Positions 2,740 to 57,938 of a stretch of 64,000 nucleotides of DNA are shown here, in pieces; position 1 is the first letter of the stretch; each line of letters opens with the position of its first letter. The notes under the pieces are model-generated. The model saw only the letters and a program-made list of their open reading frames with translations. It made no database searches and was not told the origin of the DNA. The stretch comes from an uncultured Actinomycetota bacterium (lineage in GTDB: Bacteria > Actinomycetota > Humimicrobiia > Humimicrobiales > Humimicrobiaceae): positions 5,430-69,429 of the forward strand of contig CAZFEN010000005.1 in assembly GCA_964517765.1 (NCBI GenBank), written 5' to 3'. Both the position numbers and the translations under genes were made by a program.

Positions 2740-2810
2740 TGGTTAGTCAAGTAAATTATATAAATATGTTAAATAAATGCCTTGACTAACCAGCATTTTA
2801 CTTTTATAAT
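2740..2810. promoter_or_regulatory. Divergent promoter region. 12-bp perfect inverted repeat TGGTTAGTCAAG (2740-2751) / CTTGACTAACCA (2781-2792), each arm carrying a TTGACT -35. Plus-strand TTGACT(2782-2787)-17-TATAAT(2805-2810); minus-strand TTGACT-17-TACTAT
   Basis: Read directly from the sequence. Consensus sigma70-like hexamers with 17-nt spacers; the arms are exact reverse complements. Confidence 0.5.
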
Positions 2811-3036
2811 AACTCAAATCAGTAACTATTATAAATCAGTAACTATAATAAAATTATTATAAAATTATTATATTATAAAATCCATATAAAAATTAATCTC
2901 AAGCAATAAATTAGCAAGTAGTTCAAATATCTTAAATCCTGGGGATAAATCGATAATGAAGGAAACAGTATTTTACATACTTTTAAAAATATTCCAAATA
3001 AATTTCAATATCAATATTAATATATGTAAAAATAAA

Positions 3037-3139
3037 GGGAGGAGATGTCTATGAAAAAAAGGGGTTTGCCTATCTAATATTAAACAAATCCCGGATTATA
3101 TTTTATCAAAAAAAGTTTATTTAAAAGGAGATGAAAAAG
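3037..3139 (+). promoter_or_regulatory. Conserved 5' leader, copy A of two: SD GGGAGGAG, 8-codon uORF ATGAAAAAAAGGGGTTTGCCTATCTAA (3051-3077), core TTAAACAAATCCCGGATTA (3080-3098), TTTATCAAAAAA, then SD AAAAGGAG
   Basis: About 75% identical to 8548-8668, which lies upstream of the second SBP gene. Alignment done by eye. Confidence 0.45.
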
Positions 3140-4225
3140 GTGAAAAAAATATTATTGTTTGTTCTAGTTATAGCTTTGATGACTTCAATGCTATTAATTG
3201 GAATTTCTTGTAAAGAAAAAGCAGCTGAGAAGGGAGAGCTTATTGGTGTGACTATGCCTACAAAATCCCTGCAGCGTTGGAATCAAGATGGTGATAACAT
3301 GAAGAAGCAGCTTGAAGCAAAGGGTTATACAGTAGACCTTCAGTATGCTGAAAATGATGTAAATGCCCAGCTCAGCCAGCTCGAAAATCAGATCACAATG
3401 GGTTGTAAAGTTCTGGTAATTGCTTCCATAGATGGTTCTGCTCTCTCAGAAGTGCTAAAGAAAGCCGTAGATGCAGGAATACAGTCCATTGCTTATGACA
3501 GACTTATCATGGAAACGCCTGATGTTGATTATTACACTTCATTCGATAACTTTAAGGTAGGCGCATTACAGGGAACATATATTGAAGAAGCTCTTGGTCT
3601 GGCAGATGGAGCTGGTCCGTTTAACATCGAACTTTTTGCAGGTTCTCCCGATGATAATAATGCTACATTATTCAATAATGGAGCAATGAGTATCATACAG
3701 CAATACATTGACAGCGGACAGCTGGTAGTAGTAAGTGGTCAGACTGATTTTCTGACAATAGCTACACCTGCATGGAAATCTGAAACCGCTCAGGCAAGAA
3801 TGGATAACCTTATCACAGCAAACTATGCAGGCGATACAAAGCTTGATGTTGTTCTTTGTCCGAATGACAGTACTGCAATAGGTGTTATAGCAGCACTTGA
3901 TAACGTTGGTTACGGAAGCGCAGATAAACCATATCCAGTAATAACCGGACAGGACTGTGACATAGCAAACGTACTTGCAATGATTGATGGTAAGCAATCG
4001 ATGTCAGTGTTTAAAGACACGCGTACGCTGGCTGCACAGGCAGTAGATATGGTAGATGCTATTATGAAGGGCGAGGAAGTCCCGGTAAACGATACAAGCA
4101 CATATGACAACGGTGTTAAGATAGTTCCTTCATTCCTGTGCGTGCCCGTATTTGCAAATGCAGATAATTACAAAGAGATTCTGATTGATAGCGGATATTA
4201 TACAGAAGATCAGCTTACGAAGTAA
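3140..4225 (+). CDS. xylF: D-xylose ABC transporter substrate-binding lipoprotein (ChvE/XylF family)
   Basis: Lipobox LLIGISC. Periplasmic sugar-binding fold similar to XylF/ChvE. The ORF-track ATG at 3131 abuts the SD AAGGAG with no spacer, so GTG 3140 (9-nt spacer, MKKILLF...) is the more plausible start. Confidence 0.85.
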   Translation: MKKILLFVLVIALMTSMLLIGISCKEKAAEKGELIGVTMPTKSLQRWNQDGDNMKKQLEAKGYTVDLQYAENDVNAQLSQLENQITMGCKVLVIASIDGSALSEVLKKAVDAGIQSIAYDRLIMETPDVDYYTSFDNFKVGALQGTYIEEALGLADGAGPFNIELFAGSPDDNNATLFNNGAMSIIQQYIDSGQLVVVSGQTDFLTIATPAWKSETAQARMDNLITANYAGDTKLDVVLCPNDSTAIGVIAALDNVGYGSADKPYPVITGQDCDIANVLAMIDGKQSMSVFKDTRTLAAQAVDMVDAIMKGEEVPVNDTSTYDNGVKIVPSFLCVPVFANADNYKEILIDSGYYTEDQLTK

Positions 4226-4262
4226 TTAATGGACAAAAAAGAGTAAGCTATTTCTTGTAAAG

Positions 4263-4303
4263 ACTGCAGGTCGAATATTTAAAAAGAGTATTCGACCTGC
4301 AGT
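4263..4303 (+). terminator. Intercistronic stem-loop: perfect 15-bp inverted repeat ACTGCAGGTCGAATA / TATTCGACCTGCAGT with 11-nt loop, between xylF and xylG
   Basis: Seen in sequence; followed by TTTAAAAAAA rather than a long T-run, so it is more likely an mRNA-stabilising or partial terminator than a full one. Confidence 0.5.
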
Positions 4304-4335
4304 TTAAAAAAACAATAAACAGGAGATCTTATTAA

Positions 4336-5877
4336 ATGCAATCAACGATTCTTGAGATGAAAAATATAACAAAGATTTTCCCTGGCGTTAAAGCGCTGGA
4401 TAATGTGAACATGGATGTAGTTGAAGGGGAAATCCATGCTCTTGTAGGTGAAAACGGTGCAGGAAAATCTACGCTCATGAATGTTCTTTCCGGAATACAT
4501 CCTTACGGTACTTATACAGGGAATATTATATATTACGGCAAGGAGTGTCATTTTAAAACTATAAGAGACAGCGAGCATGTTGGAATTGTTATTATTCATC
4601 AGGAATTGGAAATGGTGCCGTATCTATCTATTGCTGAAAATATATTTCTGGGCAATGAACGGGCAAAGAATAAAATAATAGATTGGGATAGAACTCATTA
4701 TGAGGCAAACCAGCTTTTAAAACGTGTGGGGCTGAATGAAGATACGCAGAAACCAGTAAAGGATATTGGTGTCGGAAAGCAGCAGCTCGTTGAAATAGCA
4801 AAGGTACTTTCGAAAAAAGTCAAATTATTAATACTTGATGAACCAACTGCAGCGCTGACTGATGAAGAATCCGAAAAACTTCTAAAACTATTACTTCAGT
4901 TCAAAGCAGAAGGCATAACATCAATAATGATTTCACATAAGATACATGAAGTCTCCAAAATTGCAGACCGGATAACTATCTTACGCGATGGGGGCACTAT
5001 AGAAACCCTAACAAAAGATATAGATGATATTGGAGAGGACAGGATAATAAAAGGAATGGTTGGCCGTCCGTTGACAGATAGATTCCCTAAACGTGTATCA
5101 AATATAGGAGAGGTAACTTTAGAGGTTAAAAACTGGAATGTCTATGATCCTATGGTCGAAGGCAGGCAGGTAATAAAAAATGCAAGCATAAATGTTCGTA
5201 AAGGTGAAGTTGTTGGTATTGCCGGTCTGATGGGTGCCGGGAGGACTGAATTTGTAATGAGTATTTTTGGAAAGGCATATGGCAGAAATATCTCCGGTCA
5301 AATAGTTTTAAACGGAAAAGAAATAAATCTTAAAAATATAAGAGCAGCTATAGATAACGGGATTGCATATTGTACGGAGGATAGAAAATCTGCGGGACTG
5401 GTGCTGATCAGTGACATAAAAACAAACCTGACACTTGCCGGACTTAAAAAAATCAGTAAAAAAACAGTTATTGATCAAAACAAAGAAATAAGAATGGCAG
5501 AAGAATATGTTAAGAAACTTAAAATTAAAACTTCTGGTTTAATGCAAAAAGCCGCTAATCTATCCGGTGGAAATCAGCAAAAACTTATACTTTCAAAATG
5601 GACATTTGTTGAACCTGAAATTCTGATACTGGACGAACCAACAAGAGGAATTGATGTTGGCGCAAAATATGAAATATACTTAATTATAAATGAACTGGTT
5701 TCTGAAGGTAAATCAGTGATTTTCATTTCTTCGGAGCTTCCTGAAATTATTGGTATGAGTGACCGTGTATTTGTCATGAATATGGGTCGCATAGTCGGCG
5801 AGCTTGAAGACAATGAAGCTACCCAGGAATCAATAATGAAATGTATAATGAAGAGTCAGAGTAAGGGAGTGCAATAA
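4336..5877 (+). CDS. xylG: Sugar ABC transporter ATP-binding protein with duplicated ATPase domains
   Basis: Two Walker A/signature sets (GENGAGKST; LSGGNQQK), 513 aa, MglA/XylG/RbsA architecture. Confidence 0.9.
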
Positions 5878-7060: not shown

Positions 7061-7205
7061 TTTTATACAGGTAAAAATTGCTAGGATCTCTTATATCTTT
7101 TATCAGAAAAAAATAGATTTTTAACCTTGAAATTACGTGTTTTCTCTAAAGGCCTGGTTTTTTAAATATATATGATTAAATAGACAAATAAGTTATGTAA
7201 TTGGC

Positions 7206-7234
7206 TTGACTAAACGATTTTTTAATCTTATAAT
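7206..7234 (+). promoter_or_regulatory. Consensus sigma70-like promoter TTGACT-17-TATAAT upstream of the ROK regulator gene
   Basis: TTGACT 7206-7211, TATAAT 7229-7234. The -35 context CTTGACTAAAC closely matches the CTTGACTAACC arm of the xylA/xylF palindrome. Confidence 0.5.
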
Positions 7235-7302
7235 GAAAATTCAAGTTAATTAGTATAAAAAAATAATTTACTCGAACAAAACTTTTTAAAAACTTCTATC
7301 TT

Positions 7303-8517
7303 ATGATTTCTATAAAGAAACAACAAACTCTTAAACAGGCAAACAGGAAAGCAATATTAAATGTTCTTCGCAATTCCGGAGAAATATCGGTAGCTGATCT
7401 TTCCAAGAAGGTCAATTTAAGCAAGCAGACACTGATGAAAATAATGAATTATTATACCAGAAATGGAATGGTTATTATTACAGGGAAGGGAAATTCTACA
7501 GAAGAGGGTGGTAAGAAACCCAATATTTATAAGTTCAATACAGACGGTGGTTACGCAATTGGCATGGCTATATCGGCAAATAAATTATTTTCTATAATTA
7601 CTGATTTGAAAAGTAAAATTCTGGATGAAATTTCAGTAGTTCTGGAAGCTGATGAAGAGTTTGACAGTATTCTACAGAAAATAATTGATTCATATAATTA
7701 TCTTACAAAAAATCCGGAAATTAAAAAAGAGAGAATTATCGGTCTGGCAATTGGGGCCTACGGTATAACTGATTTCACTCAAGGGAAAGTTATTTTTTCA
7801 CCACATTTTCCATCATGGGGTAAAGATTTAATGCTGAAAGAAAAAATAATGGAACGAATACCAGAGAATATTCCGGTAATGGTTGATAATCATTCAAGGT
7901 TCCAGGTTTTTGCTGAAAAAATTTTAGGTCTGGCTAAAGATAAAAACAATGTTGTTGCCTTACAGGCAGGAAAAGGGCTGGTAGCAGGAGTGATAATAGA
8001 AAATGAAATCAAAAGGGGTAATCATTTTTTAATTGGGGAAATAGGGCACATGATAATAGATCACGAAGGAAGAGAAATATGTTCTTGTGGAGGTAAGGGC
8101 TGTTTTGAAGCAATGGTGTCAACCCGTAGAATATTAAGAATGGCTAAAGAAAAGTATAAAGAATATCCTGATTCCATAATTTTTAATAATAATGGTCCTG
8201 ATGGCATAGATATCTATGATGTATTTGATGCATCAAATAAAGGGGATACACTTGCACTGTATCTTATGAATGACATAATTAACTGGTTTGGAATTGGGAT
8301 ATCTAATATTATTCTTATGTATGATCCGCAGGTTATGATTATTCAGGGCATCTTTACAAAAGCAGGGAAATATTTTATTGAAAATTTAAGAAAAAAGATT
8401 AATAAAATTTCCTTATTTTCCATAAAAAGAGAAACTGAAATTAAATATTCCGAGCTTGAGGATAAAGCAGGTGTGCTGGGAGCAGCATCTTTTGTTCTTT
8501 CCAGATATTTTGAATAG
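7303..8517 (+). CDS. xylR: ROK-family transcriptional regulator (XylR-like repressor)
   Basis: N-terminal wHTH (ISVADLSKKVNLSKQTLMKIMN) plus a ROK sugar-kinase-like domain with the zinc motif CSCGGKGCFEAM. Confidence 0.8.
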   Translation: MISIKKQQTLKQANRKAILNVLRNSGEISVADLSKKVNLSKQTLMKIMNYYTRNGMVIITGKGNSTEEGGKKPNIYKFNTDGGYAIGMAISANKLFSIITDLKSKILDEISVVLEADEEFDSILQKIIDSYNYLTKNPEIKKERIIGLAIGAYGITDFTQGKVIFSPHFPSWGKDLMLKEKIMERIPENIPVMVDNHSRFQVFAEKILGLAKDKNNVVALQAGKGLVAGVIIENEIKRGNHFLIGEIGHMIIDHEGREICSCGGKGCFEAMVSTRRILRMAKEKYKEYPDSIIFNNNGPDGIDIYDVFDASNKGDTLALYLMNDIINWFGIGISNIILMYDPQVMIIQGIFTKAGKYFIENLRKKINKISLFSIKRETEIKYSELEDKAGVLGAASFVLSRYFE

Positions 8518-8547
8518 ATTTCAAATTTAATATAAATTATCAAAAGA

Positions 8548-8668
8548 GAAGGGGGGTACTTATGAAAAAACATGGGATTTGCCTAAAGCCCTTTACAGGC
8601 TTAATCTTAAACAAATCCCGGATTAATTTTTATCAAAAAAGAAATTTTGTTAAAAGGAGATGAGACAA
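8548..8668 (+). promoter_or_regulatory. Conserved 5' leader, copy B: ATGAAAAAACATGGGATTTGCCTA..., core TTAAACAAATCCCGGATTA (8607-8625), TTTATCAAAAAA, SD AAAAGGAG. The uORF 8562-8663 (33 codons) ends in a TGA overlapping the SBP start region
   Basis: Paralogous to 3037-3139. Confidence 0.45.
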
Positions 8669-10015
8669 TTGAAAAAAATATTAATTCTTACTTTGATTGC
8701 AGCTTTCATGATTTCAATGTTGTTTCTTGGAACTTCCTGCAAAGAAGAAGAAGCAGCAGCTGAAGAAGAAGTTGTAGCCGAAGAAGAAGAAGTTGCAGAA
8801 GAAGAAGAAGTAGTAGTAGCCGAGCCAGTTACTGTTACCTGGTGGCACATACAGACTGAAACAACCCAGGCAGCTTTATGGCAGGATTACGCTGACATGT
8901 ATATGGCTGAGAATCCAAATGTTACTGTTGAGGTTACAGTTTTGGAGAACGAAAACTTCAAGGCCAAACTGACTACAACTATGCAGACCGGCGAAGTACC
9001 TGATATTTTCCAGAGCTGGGGTGGTGGAACAATGAATGATCAGGCCGAAGCTGGATTACTGAAAGACATTACAGCATTTCTTGATGCAGATGGATGGCGT
9101 GATACATTCTCACCAGGTGCTCTGGGTGTTTATGCCTATAACGGAGTAAACTACGGTGTACCAAGAGATATGGGAATGGTTGGCTTCTGGTATAATACGG
9201 AAATATTTGCTGATGCAGGAATTGATAGTCCACCTGCCACCTGGACGGAGCTTCTTGAAGATGTCCAGACATTAAAAGATGCAGGTATTACTCCAATTTC
9301 TGTTGGCGCTGGAGATAAATGGCCAGCTGCTTTCTGGTGGGAATATCTTTGCGTACGTATTGGCGGCCAGGCAGCTTTTCTCGCAGCTGAATCAAGAGAA
9401 GGTTCCTTCACCGATGCTCCATTTGTAGAAGCAGGAGAAAAGATTCTTGAACTGGTTGATATGGATGCTTTCCAGGACGGTTTTCTTGCTTCAACATGGG
9501 GTGATGAAGCTACCCTTATGGGTAATAGCGAAGCAGCCATGGACCTTATGGGACAATGGGCCCCCGGTTCATTCAGAGAAAACAGCGCTGATGGCACGGG
9601 ACTGGATGGTAAAATAGGATGGTTCCCATTCCCGATGGTTGAAGGTGGAGCAGGCGGCGCAAGTGATGGATTAGGCGGAGGCAATGGATTCGTAGTTGGT
9701 AAAGACGCCCCTGATGAAGCTGTAGATTTTCTGAAATTTATAAGCAGTGTGGAGTGCCAGACGGCACAGGCTGAAATAGGTATGTCCGTACCTGTTGTAA
9801 CAGGTGCTGAAGTTGGACTGACTGATCCGACACTTCTGATGGTTCAACAGGGTGCAGCAGCTGCTGAATATTTCCAGCTGTACTATGATCAGTACCTTCC
9901 ACCGGCAATGGGTTCTGTAGTAAATGATGCTGTTCAGGCAATTTTTGGAGGTGCAATGACACCATTAGAAGCTGCTCAGATGGTTGAAGACTCGGCTGCA
10001 GTAGAATTGCAGTAA
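8669..10015 (+). CDS. Carbohydrate ABC transporter substrate-binding lipoprotein (extracellular solute-binding protein family 1)
   Basis: Lipobox LFLGTSC followed by an acidic E/A/V-rich linker, then a family-1 SBP fold (aromatic-rich WW/WGGG). TTG 8669 has a better SD spacing than ATG 8660. GC is clearly higher than in flanking genes. Confidence 0.85.
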   Translation: MKKILILTLIAAFMISMLFLGTSCKEEEAAAEEEVVAEEEEVAEEEEVVVAEPVTVTWWHIQTETTQAALWQDYADMYMAENPNVTVEVTVLENENFKAKLTTTMQTGEVPDIFQSWGGGTMNDQAEAGLLKDITAFLDADGWRDTFSPGALGVYAYNGVNYGVPRDMGMVGFWYNTEIFADAGIDSPPATWTELLEDVQTLKDAGITPISVGAGDKWPAAFWWEYLCVRIGGQAAFLAAESREGSFTDAPFVEAGEKILELVDMDAFQDGFLASTWGDEATLMGNSEAAMDLMGQWAPGSFRENSADGTGLDGKIGWFPFPMVEGGAGGASDGLGGGNGFVVGKDAPDEAVDFLKFISSVECQTAQAEIGMSVPVVTGAEVGLTDPTLLMVQQGAAAAEYFQLYYDQYLPPAMGSVVNDAVQAIFGGAMTPLEAAQMVEDSAAVELQ

Positions 10016-10039: not shown

Positions 10040-10070
10040 AATGGGATTGGGCTTAATGCCCAATCCCATT
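10040..10070 (+). terminator. Intercistronic stem-loop AATGGGATTGGGC-ttaat-GCCCAATCCCATT directly after the SBP gene
   Basis: Perfect 13-bp stem seen in sequence; followed by an A-rich, not T-rich, tract. Confidence 0.5.
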
Positions 10071-10129
10071 AAATAAAAAAATATTAATAATTTTAATAAA
10101 AGATAGTATTATGTGTAAGGAGGCTCAAA

Positions 10130-11038
10130 ATAGAATCAACAAAGAGAATAAAACCCGGTGGTTTTAGTGTTGATAGAATAAAAATTTTTTTATTTTTAAT
10201 TCCAGCTGCTACACTTATACTTGTTTTCCTGGTTATTCCGATATTCCAATCTGGCTATTACAGTTTTTTTAACTGGAACGGAATGGGACCTGCAGAAGAT
10301 TTTATAGGAATGGCAAATTTTAAAACCTTATTTACCGATAAAATCTTTCTTAAGGCTGTAGCTAATAGTTTTATTATTGTTGCGCTATCATTATTCATAC
10401 AGCTCCCAATGGGCTTATTTCTGGCTATTTTGTTTGGACGCGGATTAAGGGGCCGTGCTTTTTTTAGAACGATCTTTTTCCTACCATATGTTTTCTCAGA
10501 AGCTATAGTTGCTGTTATGTGGCGGATTCTTTACAATCCAGAACCAAGCAGAGGTTTTATAAATGCAGTTTTTCAGGCATTTGGGTGGGAAACCCAGGCA
10601 TGGTTGGGAAACACAGACCTTGTTCTTTTTTCAATATTTATTGTGCTTACGTGGAAATATATTGGATTTCATATGCTTTTATATATAACAGGTCTGCAAA
10701 ACATCCCGAAAGATGTTGAAGAAGCAGCTTTGATCGATGGTGTAAACAAACGGCAGATGTTAACATATATAACCTTACCATTATTAAGCGGCACGATAAG
10801 AACATCGGTATATTTATCAGTTCTTGGTTCACTGCAGGTATATGCAATAGTATGGATTATGACCAAGGGTGGTCCGGTTAATGCAAGCGAGATTCTATCA
10901 ACATACATGTACCGCTTTAGTTTTGTGCGGTTCCAACTTGGTTACGGTGCAGCTGTGGCAATAATAATGTTAATTATTGCACTTATTTTTTCTATAACAT
11001 ACATGAGTTTTGTGCGCAGAACAGAACATATAGTATAG
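10130..11038 (+). CDS. Carbohydrate ABC transporter permease (MalF/UgpA-like, CUT1) with anomalous start
   Basis: TM protein with an EAA-like loop. The open frame extends upstream of the ORF-track ATG (10283) to 10093 and encodes a typical permease N-terminus (...KRIKPGGFSVDRIKIFLFLIPAATLILVFLVIPIFQSGYYSFFNWNG). No ATG/GTG/TTG in frame. A strong SD AAGGAGG (10117-10123) is followed by in-frame ATA at 10130. ATG 10111 is in the -1 frame. Confidence 0.7.
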   Translation: MESTKRIKPGGFSVDRIKIFLFLIPAATLILVFLVIPIFQSGYYSFFNWNGMGPAEDFIGMANFKTLFTDKIFLKAVANSFIIVALSLFIQLPMGLFLAILFGRGLRGRAFFRTIFFLPYVFSEAIVAVMWRILYNPEPSRGFINAVFQAFGWETQAWLGNTDLVLFSIFIVLTWKYIGFHMLLYITGLQNIPKDVEEAALIDGVNKRQMLTYITLPLLSGTIRTSVYLSVLGSLQVYAIVWIMTKGGPVNASEILSTYMYRFSFVRFQLGYGAAVAIIMLIIALIFSITYMSFVRRTEHIV

Positions 11039-57563: not shown

Positions 57564-57938
57564 TCATTTTAAGCAGTCTATTATTAAATGTTTTATTAAC
57601 AGGAAAACCTGCTTTTAATTTTTACCGGTAGTGAATTCGCTGGCTGCTGGCTGAAATTTGGTAAAATCCGGCTTTATTGAATAAACTATTCAATTATGAT
57701 AACATCACTATCGGGTACTCTATTTATATCGTAATTAAAGTTAAATTTTTGTGCCAACAAAGTTACATTGGAAGCTTAAACTCTGACTGTAGCATAAATG
57801 CCCATATTTCATTAGTGGGACTTATAAAGCAGACAGGAGAGCATCCACCTGCTGAGAGCAGGGCGCAAAAAACTTCCTCTAGTTACGACTAAATTGAGTA
57901 TCCATTTTATTATCGAAAATCAATCTATAATTAATTAT
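57564..57938 (+). promoter_or_regulatory. Long (~375 nt) 5' leader upstream of alaS with several stem-loops (e.g. TTTTACC...GGTAAAA 57627-57673; CCTGCT-gag-AGCAGG 57848-57862). Candidate regulatory RNA, possibly T-box-like
   Basis: Unusually long non-coding gap before a tRNA-synthetase gene. Helices seen by eye. No confident T-box consensus could be verified. Confidence 0.3.

Follow-up and report, generated by a model that had tools for sequence, protein, structure and literature searches.

What does the leader do that is shared by two substrate-binding protein (SBP) genes with unrelated mature products, in a 64-kb stretch of DNA from an uncultured member of the Actinomycetota (contig CAZFEN010000005.1, positions 5,430 to 69,429; hereafter, the window)? 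An earlier note on the window had reported a duplicated leader before both SBP genes, and the duplication is real and longer than noted: 2989-3225 is homologous to 8505-8754, with BLAST alignments of 78% identity over 153 nucleotides (nt) for 3075-3225 and 8602-8754 (E 1e-32), and of 70% identity for 2989-3072 and 8505-8585. The homologous stretch comprises the last codons of rok, a gene for a ROK-family regulator, with the DNA past its stop codon, the leader itself, and ~85 nt of signal-peptide coding sequence; in both places AT-rich upstream DNA, leader and signal peptide follow one another in this order. The SBPs behind the two copies are non-homologous in their mature parts, Peripla_BP_4 for copy 1 (SBP1) and SBP_bac_1 for copy 2 (SBP2). 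The identical core, the flanking blocks TTTATCAAAAAA and TTAAAAGGAGATGA, the GTG start at 3140 and the TTG start at 8669 are all present as described. The window has exactly two occurrences of the 19-mer TTAAACAAATCCCGGATTA (3080-3098 and 8607-8625), against 0.08 expected by chance with three mismatches allowed, and a profile of the leader, run over the 64 kb, finds these two copies only. The best explanation, to which we give a probability of about one-half, is that the leader is a transcribed, cis-acting, internal mRNA element that would mature or stabilize the SBP message, similar to the STAB-SD of cry3A or to the cggR-gapA system; among the options of the earlier note, this comes closest to the small cis-RNA element. 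The parts of the two copies are as follows.

2989..3036, + strand: copy 1, AT-rich segment, homologous to 8505-8547 (3' end of rok and DNA past its stop codon)
3037..3044, + strand: copy 1, upstream Shine-Dalgarno (SD)-like box GGGAGGAG, predicted decoy ribosome-binding site; an SD-like box is at this position in 23/23 copies
3051..3077, + strand: copy 1, mini-open reading frame (mini-ORF) MKKRGLPI*, running into the 5' strand of the helix; peptide not conserved
3061..3092, + strand: copy 1, hairpin P1, GGGGTTTG (3061-3068) with CAAATCCC (3085-3092); inner hairpin P2 deleted, as in locus L106
3100..3114, + strand: copy 1, conserved A/U block ATTTTATCAAAAAAA, 6-7 nt past the helix
3123..3142, + strand: copy 1, real ribosome-binding site AAAAGGAGATGA (3123-3134) and GTG (3140-3142) of the Peripla_BP_4 SBP gene, which extends to 4225; the JGI gene call begins at this GTG
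3140..3225, + strand: copy 1, lipoprotein signal peptide and lipobox (MKKILLFVLVIALMTSMLLIGISC...), shared, part of the duplicated cassette
8548..8556, + strand: copy 2, upstream SD-like box GAAGGGGGG, placed by the alignment of 23 copies
8562..8663, + strand: copy 2, 33-codon upstream ORF (uORF), its stop TGA overlapping an in-frame ATG (ATGA, 8660-8663)
8574..8619, + strand: copy 2, hairpin P1, GGGATTTGCCTAA (8574-8586) with TTAAACAAATCCC (8607-8619), a small P2 (AGCC/GGCT) inside
8626..8640, + strand: copy 2, conserved A/U block ATTTTTATCAAAAAA
8652..8671, + strand: copy 2, real ribosome-binding site AAAAGGAGATGA (8652-8663) and TTG (8669-8671) of the SBP_bac_1 SBP gene, which extends to 10015
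8669..8754, + strand: copy 2, lipoprotein signal peptide and lipobox (MKKILILTLIAAFMISMLFLGTSC...), shared

The leader is conserved well beyond the window. Altogether, 23 copies were aligned, all from uncultured AT-rich Actinomycetota, probably Candidatus Humimicrobiia, and the SBPs behind them belong to three Pfam families. JGI metagenome contigs also encode the ROK protein of the window; its relatives, 72-88% identical, come from 14 contigs with 32-37% G+C, and the respective metagenome-assembled genomes (MAGs) are labeled Actinomycetota except for one Bacteroidales. The NCBI name attached to an SBP2 homolog with the same signal peptide is Candidatus Hydromicrobium, class Candidatus Humimicrobiia. 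The profile search locates the leader downstream of rok in every related rok locus except L125, where leader and SBP2 operon are gone through a deletion. In L131 and L133, as in the window, a second copy stands before another SBP upstream of rok, and L126 shows a fresh tandem duplication of the leader (4193-4546). Contigs with SBP2 homologs yielded further copies (two in L164 and one each in L165 and L167), and L141 has a strongly diverged copy in which the arm sequence is different and the architecture is the same.

From 5' to 3', the conserved blocks are the SD-like box, a run of A, GAGATTTGTCTAAG, 8-24 variable nt, CTTAAACAAATCTC, six variable bases, ATTTTATCAAAA, a variable A/T spacer, TTAAAAGGAGATGA, and the GTG or TTG start codon followed by AAAAAAATA; the A-run amounts to 4-8 A in the 8 nt directly 5' of P1 in all copies. 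The flanking rok genes are 37-46% identical at 4-fold degenerate sites, that is, nearly saturated, while the leader blocks are almost invariant in the 23 copies, which implies that these blocks are under purifying selection.

The arms GAGATTTGTCTAAG and CTTAAACAAATCTC are complementary and are predicted by RNAalifold to form a helix of 13-14 bp, P1, so that the 'core' singled out earlier is the 3' strand of P1 together with the next six bases; AAATCCC in the window belongs to this strand, and its partner lies 20-40 nt upstream. Covariation in the collected homologous leaders, the check suggested in the earlier note, supports a helix of 13 pairs across the 23 copies and thereby qualifies the leader as a structured cis-regulatory RNA, but the support is only moderate because most positions are conserved in sequence. 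The P1 cells of the alignment are paired in 93.5% of cases, compared with 11-52% when the 3' strand is slid along, the covariation score is not reached in any of 500 shuffles, three pairs show changes on both sides, and 15 cells are G-U. The clearest replacements are the compensatory exchange of A-U for G-C between the relatives (GAGATTTG/CAAATCTC) and the window (GGGATTTG/CAAATCCC), and a compensatory UCUU/AAGG in L131a. Every copy folds into P1, mostly with a small, variable inner hairpin that is absent in copy 1 and in its ortholog L106, two leaders that differ only by two substitutions and one 3-nt insertion. The energy of the plus-strand hairpin varies within narrow limits (mean -12.6, standard deviation 2.3 kcal/mol), compared with a standard deviation of 5.3 for the minus strand, on which the hairpin is lost in the divergent copies L131a, L132, L167, L133b and L141 (minus versus plus strand, in kcal/mol: L131a, -3.4 and -14.6; L167, -4.1 and -14.3; L132, -6.1 and -14.5; L141, -3.9 and -11.8). 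The counts of G-U versus A-C cells, 15 against 10, or 15 against 24 with the mismatch column included, are indecisive, unlike the energies, which separate the strands and hence favor the plus strand.

The other hallmark of the leader is the purine-rich SD-like box, AAGGAGGTG in most cases, which is present in 23 of the 23 copies, 85-110 nt before the GTG or TTG start and thus far upstream in the 5' untranslated region. Judged against the canonical anti-SD, this box fits better than the real SD, whose extended form AAAGGAGATGA is one base off AAAGGAGGTGA; the genes of this organism use GGAGG, a spacer of 5-9 nt and ATG, the same kind of site as the SD-like box. Among the first 19 copies, 13 have a start codon 3-6 nt past the box, and in the other six the next start is 13-24 nt off. 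The uORF lengths of 8 codons (3051-3077) and 33 codons (8562-8663) given previously for the window are correct, and across the alignment the range is 1-33 codons, with stops before, inside or after the helix, and with the window copies in another frame than the relatives. This variability of length, frame and stop bears out the earlier view that conservation is at the level of nucleic acid rather than peptide; what seems to be kept is the binding of a ribosome, not a product. In L126, the SD and first codons of the first leader copy form the 'upstream SD and mini-ORF' of the second, which suggests how a decoy ribosome-binding site could have arisen.

Whether the leader lies inside a transcript depends on the promoters, and graded expression within that transcript is suggested by hairpins and start sites around it. 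The relevant features are as follows.

2741..2810, + strand: probable promoter of the SBP1 operon, TTGACT (2782-2787) -17- TATAAT (2805-2810), with arms GGTTAGTCAAG (2741-2751) and CTTGACTAACC (2781-2791), ~230 nt 5' of the leader
2754..2892, + strand: remnant of rok promoter and rok start, similar to 7178-7320 (67% over 143 nt, E 4e-7), ATG decayed to ATA
4261..4305, + strand: 20-bp hairpin, ~-30 kcal/mol, no U-tract, immediately behind the SBP1 stop, ahead of the ATPase gene
7206..7234, + strand: rok promoter TTGACT-17-TATAAT, the only strong promoter upstream of copy 2
7303..8517, + strand: rok, ROK-family regulator gene, with no SD visible before its ATG (7235-7305)
10040..10070, + strand: 13-bp G+C-rich hairpin, ~-25 kcal/mol, no U-tract, immediately behind the SBP2 stop, ahead of the permease genes

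The same promoter, TTGACT-17-TATAAT, stands upstream of rok in 12 of 12 related loci (L125-L136) and 220-360 nt upstream of the first-SBP leader in three of three loci (the window, L131 at 2112 and L133 at 3629). Neither a promoter scan nor the comparison of loci reveals a conserved promoter between the rok stop and the SBP start. The leader of copy 2 begins 31 nt past the rok stop codon, and the -35-like TTGAAT at that stop has decayed to TTCCAA in copy 1, which argues against a promoter directly before the leader. A candidate internal plus-strand promoter, TTAAAC-17/18-TATCAA, was rejected with 7 of 12 matches and a -10 element lacking the last T. The sole plus-strand terminator-like site in the promoter and terminator scan, at 8473-8488, is inside rok, upstream of copy 2. 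The regulator and the SBP downstream of it are accordingly predicted to share one transcript. Unlike the SBP leaders with their double SD, rok has no recognizable SD.

Two pieces of the rok locus align in the same order with the DNA upstream of SBP1 (2754-2892 with 7178-7320 and 2989-3225 with 8505-8754), which hence is a copy of the whole rok cassette from which rok was later lost. A similar rok remnant was seen by eye downstream of the SBP1 promoter in L131. Just downstream of the window SBP1 promoter (2817-2850), the direct repeat AAATCAGTAACTAT occurs twice, followed by two copies of ATAAAATTATTAT.

Of 18 leader-bearing SBP genes, 16 are directly followed by hairpins of -22 to -33 kcal/mol that lack a U-tract, inside the operons and with stem sequences that differ between loci; these hairpins are likely to act as 3' stabilizers of the SBP segment of the mRNA. 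The first permease gene after SBP2 has an apparent ATA start at 10130, 6 nt past AAGGAGG (10118-10132), and relatives (L130, L134, L136 and L137) have ATT or ATA at the same position, 4-7 nt past the SD; the mechanical ORF call, at ATG 10283, would drop the first transmembrane segment of the permease.

Taken together, these features are compatible with a portable expression cassette that consists of promoter and operator, rok, leader and lipoprotein signal peptide, in this order. The leader would be part of a longer transcript, after rok in copy 2 and after the decayed rok remnant in copy 1; its strong SD-like box, mostly with a start codon, would capture a ribosome without encoding anything conserved. 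We infer that the primary transcript is cut, or trimmed from the 5' side, and that 5'-to-3' decay is then halted by the ribosome on the decoy site, by the hairpin, or by both, the protecting part not being distinguishable, whereas the strong hairpin behind the SBP gene would halt decay in the 3'-to-5' direction. The SBP cistron would thereby become a stable, heavily translated segment, and the regulator, lacking an SD, and the permease, with its apparent ATA or ATT start, would be made at a low level.

Good counterparts of this likely mechanism are known, so that the result is not surprising in kind. In the STAB-SD of Bacillus thuringiensis cry3A, an SD-like box ~125 nt before the start codon holds the 30S subunit and blocks RNase J1, and the promoter is at -558 (PMC4113751; Agaisse & Lereclus 1996). 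Both there and here, an SD-like box with full complementarity to the 16S 3' end stands ~85-125 nt before the real start codon and presumably does not serve the downstream gene, and the promoter is distant (predicted at 220-360 nt or a whole gene away in the present loci); the role proposed for the leader is the same, namely, holding a 30S subunit against a 5'-exonuclease. Unlike STAB-SD, it usually includes a start codon and mini-ORF, links the box with a conserved hairpin and A/U block, continues into a conserved signal peptide and belongs to uncultured Actinomycetota. In the cggR-gapA and glnRA operons of Bacillus subtilis, the first gene encodes the regulator, and the transcript is cleaved within an unstructured, AU-rich stretch (bioRxiv 10.1101/2023.03.12.532304, citing Meinken et al. 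2003); a stem-loop at the new 5' end protects the downstream product from RNase J1, and ~19 nt upstream of the cleavage site in cggR there is a purine-rich, SD-like stretch (bioRxiv 10.1101/2023.03.12.532304). The present loci show the same succession of a regulator gene and a gene predicted to be highly expressed, with an AU-rich stretch followed by a stem-loop between them, and SD-like box, A-run and hairpin come in the same order as in these precedents. In contrast to cggR-gapA, where the site is inside the regulator ORF, the position here is intercistronic or in the leader, and cleavage is a prediction from the DNA. On the best reading, then, the leader would act most like a STAB-SD or an operon-maturation leader, with membership in either class provisional.

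Several other explanations have to be weighed against a maturation or stabilizer leader. Least probable, indeed hardly credible, is hitch-hiking, that is, a recent duplication or gene conversion of the cassette of promoter, rok and signal peptide, with a leader that would by itself be functionless: the duplicated unit is large, the rok remnant being part of it, the tandem duplication in L126 is fresh, and the same signal peptide is fused to unrelated SBPs, but the near-invariance of the blocks between orthologous loci with 37-46% 4-fold identity, the helix kept by compensatory and wobble changes, and the P2-less version common to the window and L106, with its two substitutions and one 3-nt insertion, all speak against it. 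Very unlikely, too, is an element of the minus strand, either a tiny gene for a cis-antisense RNA or an antisense terminator, in which ATTTTATCA would be an extended -10 (TGATAAAAT) with the helix 6 nt on and then a U-run. It would account for the ATTTTATC block and its fixed spacing, and it is favored by the findings that TGATAAAAT can be read in 14 of 23 copies at a constant 6 nt from the helix base, that U makes up 6-8 of the 8 nt behind the minus-strand hairpin in 18 of 23, that the conserved C.A mismatch becomes G.U, and that the scan flags a promoter-like site at 8653-8626; however, the minus-strand hairpin collapses in divergent copies (L131a, L167, L132 and L141) that keep the plus-strand one, the -10 is spoiled in window copy 2, L131a, L167, L126a/b and L135, A/T-rich hexamers are expected often at 35% G+C, and the conservation of the SD-like box is left unexplained. 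The prospect that the blocks are instead DNA sites for the neighboring ROK repressor or another transcription factor, serving as a roadblock or second operator, is a poor one, even though the leader lies next to or near rok in all sampled loci and the ROK proteins of these loci, two paralogs of one MAG among them, all have almost the same recognition helix. Like the operators of ROK proteins, the leader adjoins a ROK gene and has A/T-rich inverted-repeat arms; these arms (reverse complement TTAGACAAAT; TTAAACAAAT) are similar to those of the promoter repeat (TTAGTCAAG), most of all to the distal arm ATAGACAAAT at the window rok promoter, and the 3' arm is conserved beyond the needs of pairing. 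The palindrome AATCC-C-GGATT (AATCCCGGATT), proposed earlier as an operator, is not conserved, however: it is confined to the lineage of the window, and relatives read ATCTCGGATAC, ATCTCCAGTAT, ATCTCTGCTAC, ATCTCAGCTAC and the like. ROK operators are palindromes of ~23 bp (PMC3553997, PMC4288165), whereas the leader contains no conserved palindrome of this size with fixed half-site spacing, its arms being 8-24 nt apart and in the orientation opposite to that at the promoters. Furthermore, substitutions of the G-U type preserve the plus-strand helix, whereas in a palindrome of DNA they would count as mismatches, an SD-like box with a start codon would be pointless in a DNA site, SBPs for different substrates have the same leader in front, and a conserved operator-like repeat already exists at the promoters.

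The alternatives that, like the maturation or stabilizer leader, place the function in the mRNA are unlikely to a lesser degree. In a ribosome-dependent switch, an unlikely scheme, translation of the mini-ORF would remodel the hairpin, or in some copies a helix at the start codon, and so tune SBP translation or rok read-through. An SD-like box and start codon do precede the helix, and the uORF often extends into the 5' arm of P1, where it ends (in several copies with the TAA contained in GTCTAAG) or runs on; a copy 2 helix of 8620-8637 with 8669-8687 would cover the TTG start and, with the overlap of uORF stop and in-frame ATG (ATGA), might be a coupling device in some copies only. As a general feature, this start-codon helix was rejected, being good in copy 2, L130, L131b and L127 but significant in only 4-6 of 18 copies, and the same applies to an anti-SD role of the 3' arm, whose AUCUC can pair with GAGAU of the real SD: in the window, which has AUCCC, this match is broken, but a compensatory change preserves P1. 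The real SD is not sequestered by P1, and the uORFs are highly irregular in length, frame and stop position; a start codon at normal distance is missing from six of the first 19 copies, and no plus-strand terminator-like hairpin with a U-tract follows. The leader-peptide attenuator suggested in the earlier note is not supported: a short ORF with its own SD before a hairpin recalls the trp/his, ermC and ampC leaders, but conserved peptide and regulatory codons are missing from the uORFs of 1-33 codons, there is no pair of terminator and antiterminator, and the plus strand has no terminator-like site in or after the leader. Somewhat less likely than the switch is a trans-acting regulator, an RNA-binding protein or small RNA that would bind the 3' arm, internal loop and A/U block and co-regulate SBP genes, for example, in a hierarchy of carbon sources; it would fit conservation in excess of pairing needs (the kept C.A mismatch and the block ATTTTATCAAAA) and a leader common to SBPs of different specificity within one genome, but the sequences examined yielded no candidate regulator or complementary small RNA, the loops have no conserved GGA-type or other known protein-binding motif, and there is no Rfam match. 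A broader version, on a par with the switch in being doubtful, makes the leader the recognition element of a lineage-wide post-transcriptional regulon that would be read by one RNA-binding protein or by a minus-strand cis-antisense RNA; if so, every binding-protein gene of these bacteria would gain the module by cassette recombination, and the capacity to take up many substrates would be adjusted globally through the mRNAs.

The maturation or stabilizer leader itself faces several difficulties. It accounts neither for the block ATTTTATCAAAA nor for the fixed distance of 6 nt between this block and the helix. Taken alone, the window copies fold no better than shuffled sequences (z 0.09 and -0.48 for leaders of 131-151 nt; -0.18 and -0.19 for shorter ones), the covariation is modest, and the exchange of A-U for G-C could have happened only once or twice. 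Conservation is stronger in the 3' arm than in the 5' arm, and 14 of 23 copies retain a C.A mismatch, so that sequence, not pairing alone, is constrained. Moreover, the link to rok is partly a sampling effect because all loci were reached via rok or the SBP itself.

As to the regulator, the promoter module is conserved over ~75 bp and contains an inverted repeat, TTAGTTAGTCAAG-N29-CTTGACTAACTAA, that overlaps the -35 element (window 2741-2810 and ~7165-7234); in the window, L125 and L126, the rok promoter has ATAGACAAAT as its distal arm instead. The ends of this repeat, TTAGTT...AACTAA, presumably recall the Bacillus xyl operator. The inverted repeat is a much better candidate for the shared ROK operator than the leader, given that ROK regulators bind palindromes in promoter regions (PMC3553997), and the module is probably where the regulon is truly controlled. 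It is a separate, well-defined candidate operator that can be used for predicting the regulon.

The genes behind the leader encode at least three groups of Peripla_BP_4 proteins (27-37% identity between groups), two groups of SBP_bac_1 and one Peripla_BP_6, which makes a sugar-specific role unlikely, and all these SBPs begin with a nearly identical lipoprotein signal peptide, MKKILIL..FMVSMLFIGTSCK. In the ~250 kb examined, the leader is found before 17 of 17 homologs of these SBPs; a third lipoprotein of the window (61041) is without it. In the orthologous operon of Atribacterota (L162 and L163), the mature SBP is 76% identical, but its signal peptide is another one and the hairpin leader is missing, and a Chloroflexi-like high-G+C homolog of the SBP lacks the leader as well; the leader therefore tracks the lineage and the signal peptide, not the mature protein. 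Cassettes in which a shared upstream region and lipoprotein signal peptide precede unrelated mature parts, and which spread by recombination, are familiar from the vlp/vsp genes of Mycoplasma and the upstream homology boxes of Borrelia; those serve antigenic or phase variation, whereas here the cargo consists of ABC-transporter binding proteins, and the cassette includes a regulator gene. If the maturation or stabilizer reading is right, a deep-branching uncultured lineage uses one promoter to make binding protein in large amounts but regulator and permease in small ones, with a reusable RNA module that is copied, along with the regulator gene and signal peptide, in front of newly recruited binding-protein genes. 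It would be a natural 'expression cassette' that could be borrowed for heterologous expression.

Some minor observations concern the relatives and the searches. The deletion in L125, the closest relative (5449-5800), starts right after the rok stop region and took the leader, SBP2, the permease genes and the 5' part of a GH3 gene. The Atribacterota loci L162 (9730-9930 and 15545-15745) and L163 have upstream SD-like boxes of their own, AAAGGAGGGATG ~110 nt and AAAGGTGGTGA ~65 nt before the starts. SBP2 homologs of Anaerolineae/Chloroflexota (P0035-P0128) share their own lineage-typical lipoprotein signal peptide, MSRKxxTLLSLxLIASFALAAC..., and lineage-specific signal-peptide 'cassettes' may thus be a more general phenomenon.

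A scan of metagenome contigs with the 17-mer AAACAAATCCCGGATTA produced, among the matches listed, only L106 as a true leader, the rest being chance; in L080 and L082, both rejected, the 17-mer sits in an unrelated terminator-like hairpin. The 15 matches of a gapped leader pattern to viral contigs were all due to chance. A profile search with the shared signal peptide returned eight short fragments, of which two were looked up: P0006 led to the diverged L141 leader and P0005 to L140, which has the upstream SD-like box only. Against Rfam 15, searched to E 10, neither leader of the window has a match at the gathering score (best E >1.7, far below gathering), so that the leader is a candidate cis-RNA motif absent from Rfam. 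The sole Rfam match of the window at the gathering score is a 6S RNA at 57714-57903 (RF00013, 69 bits).

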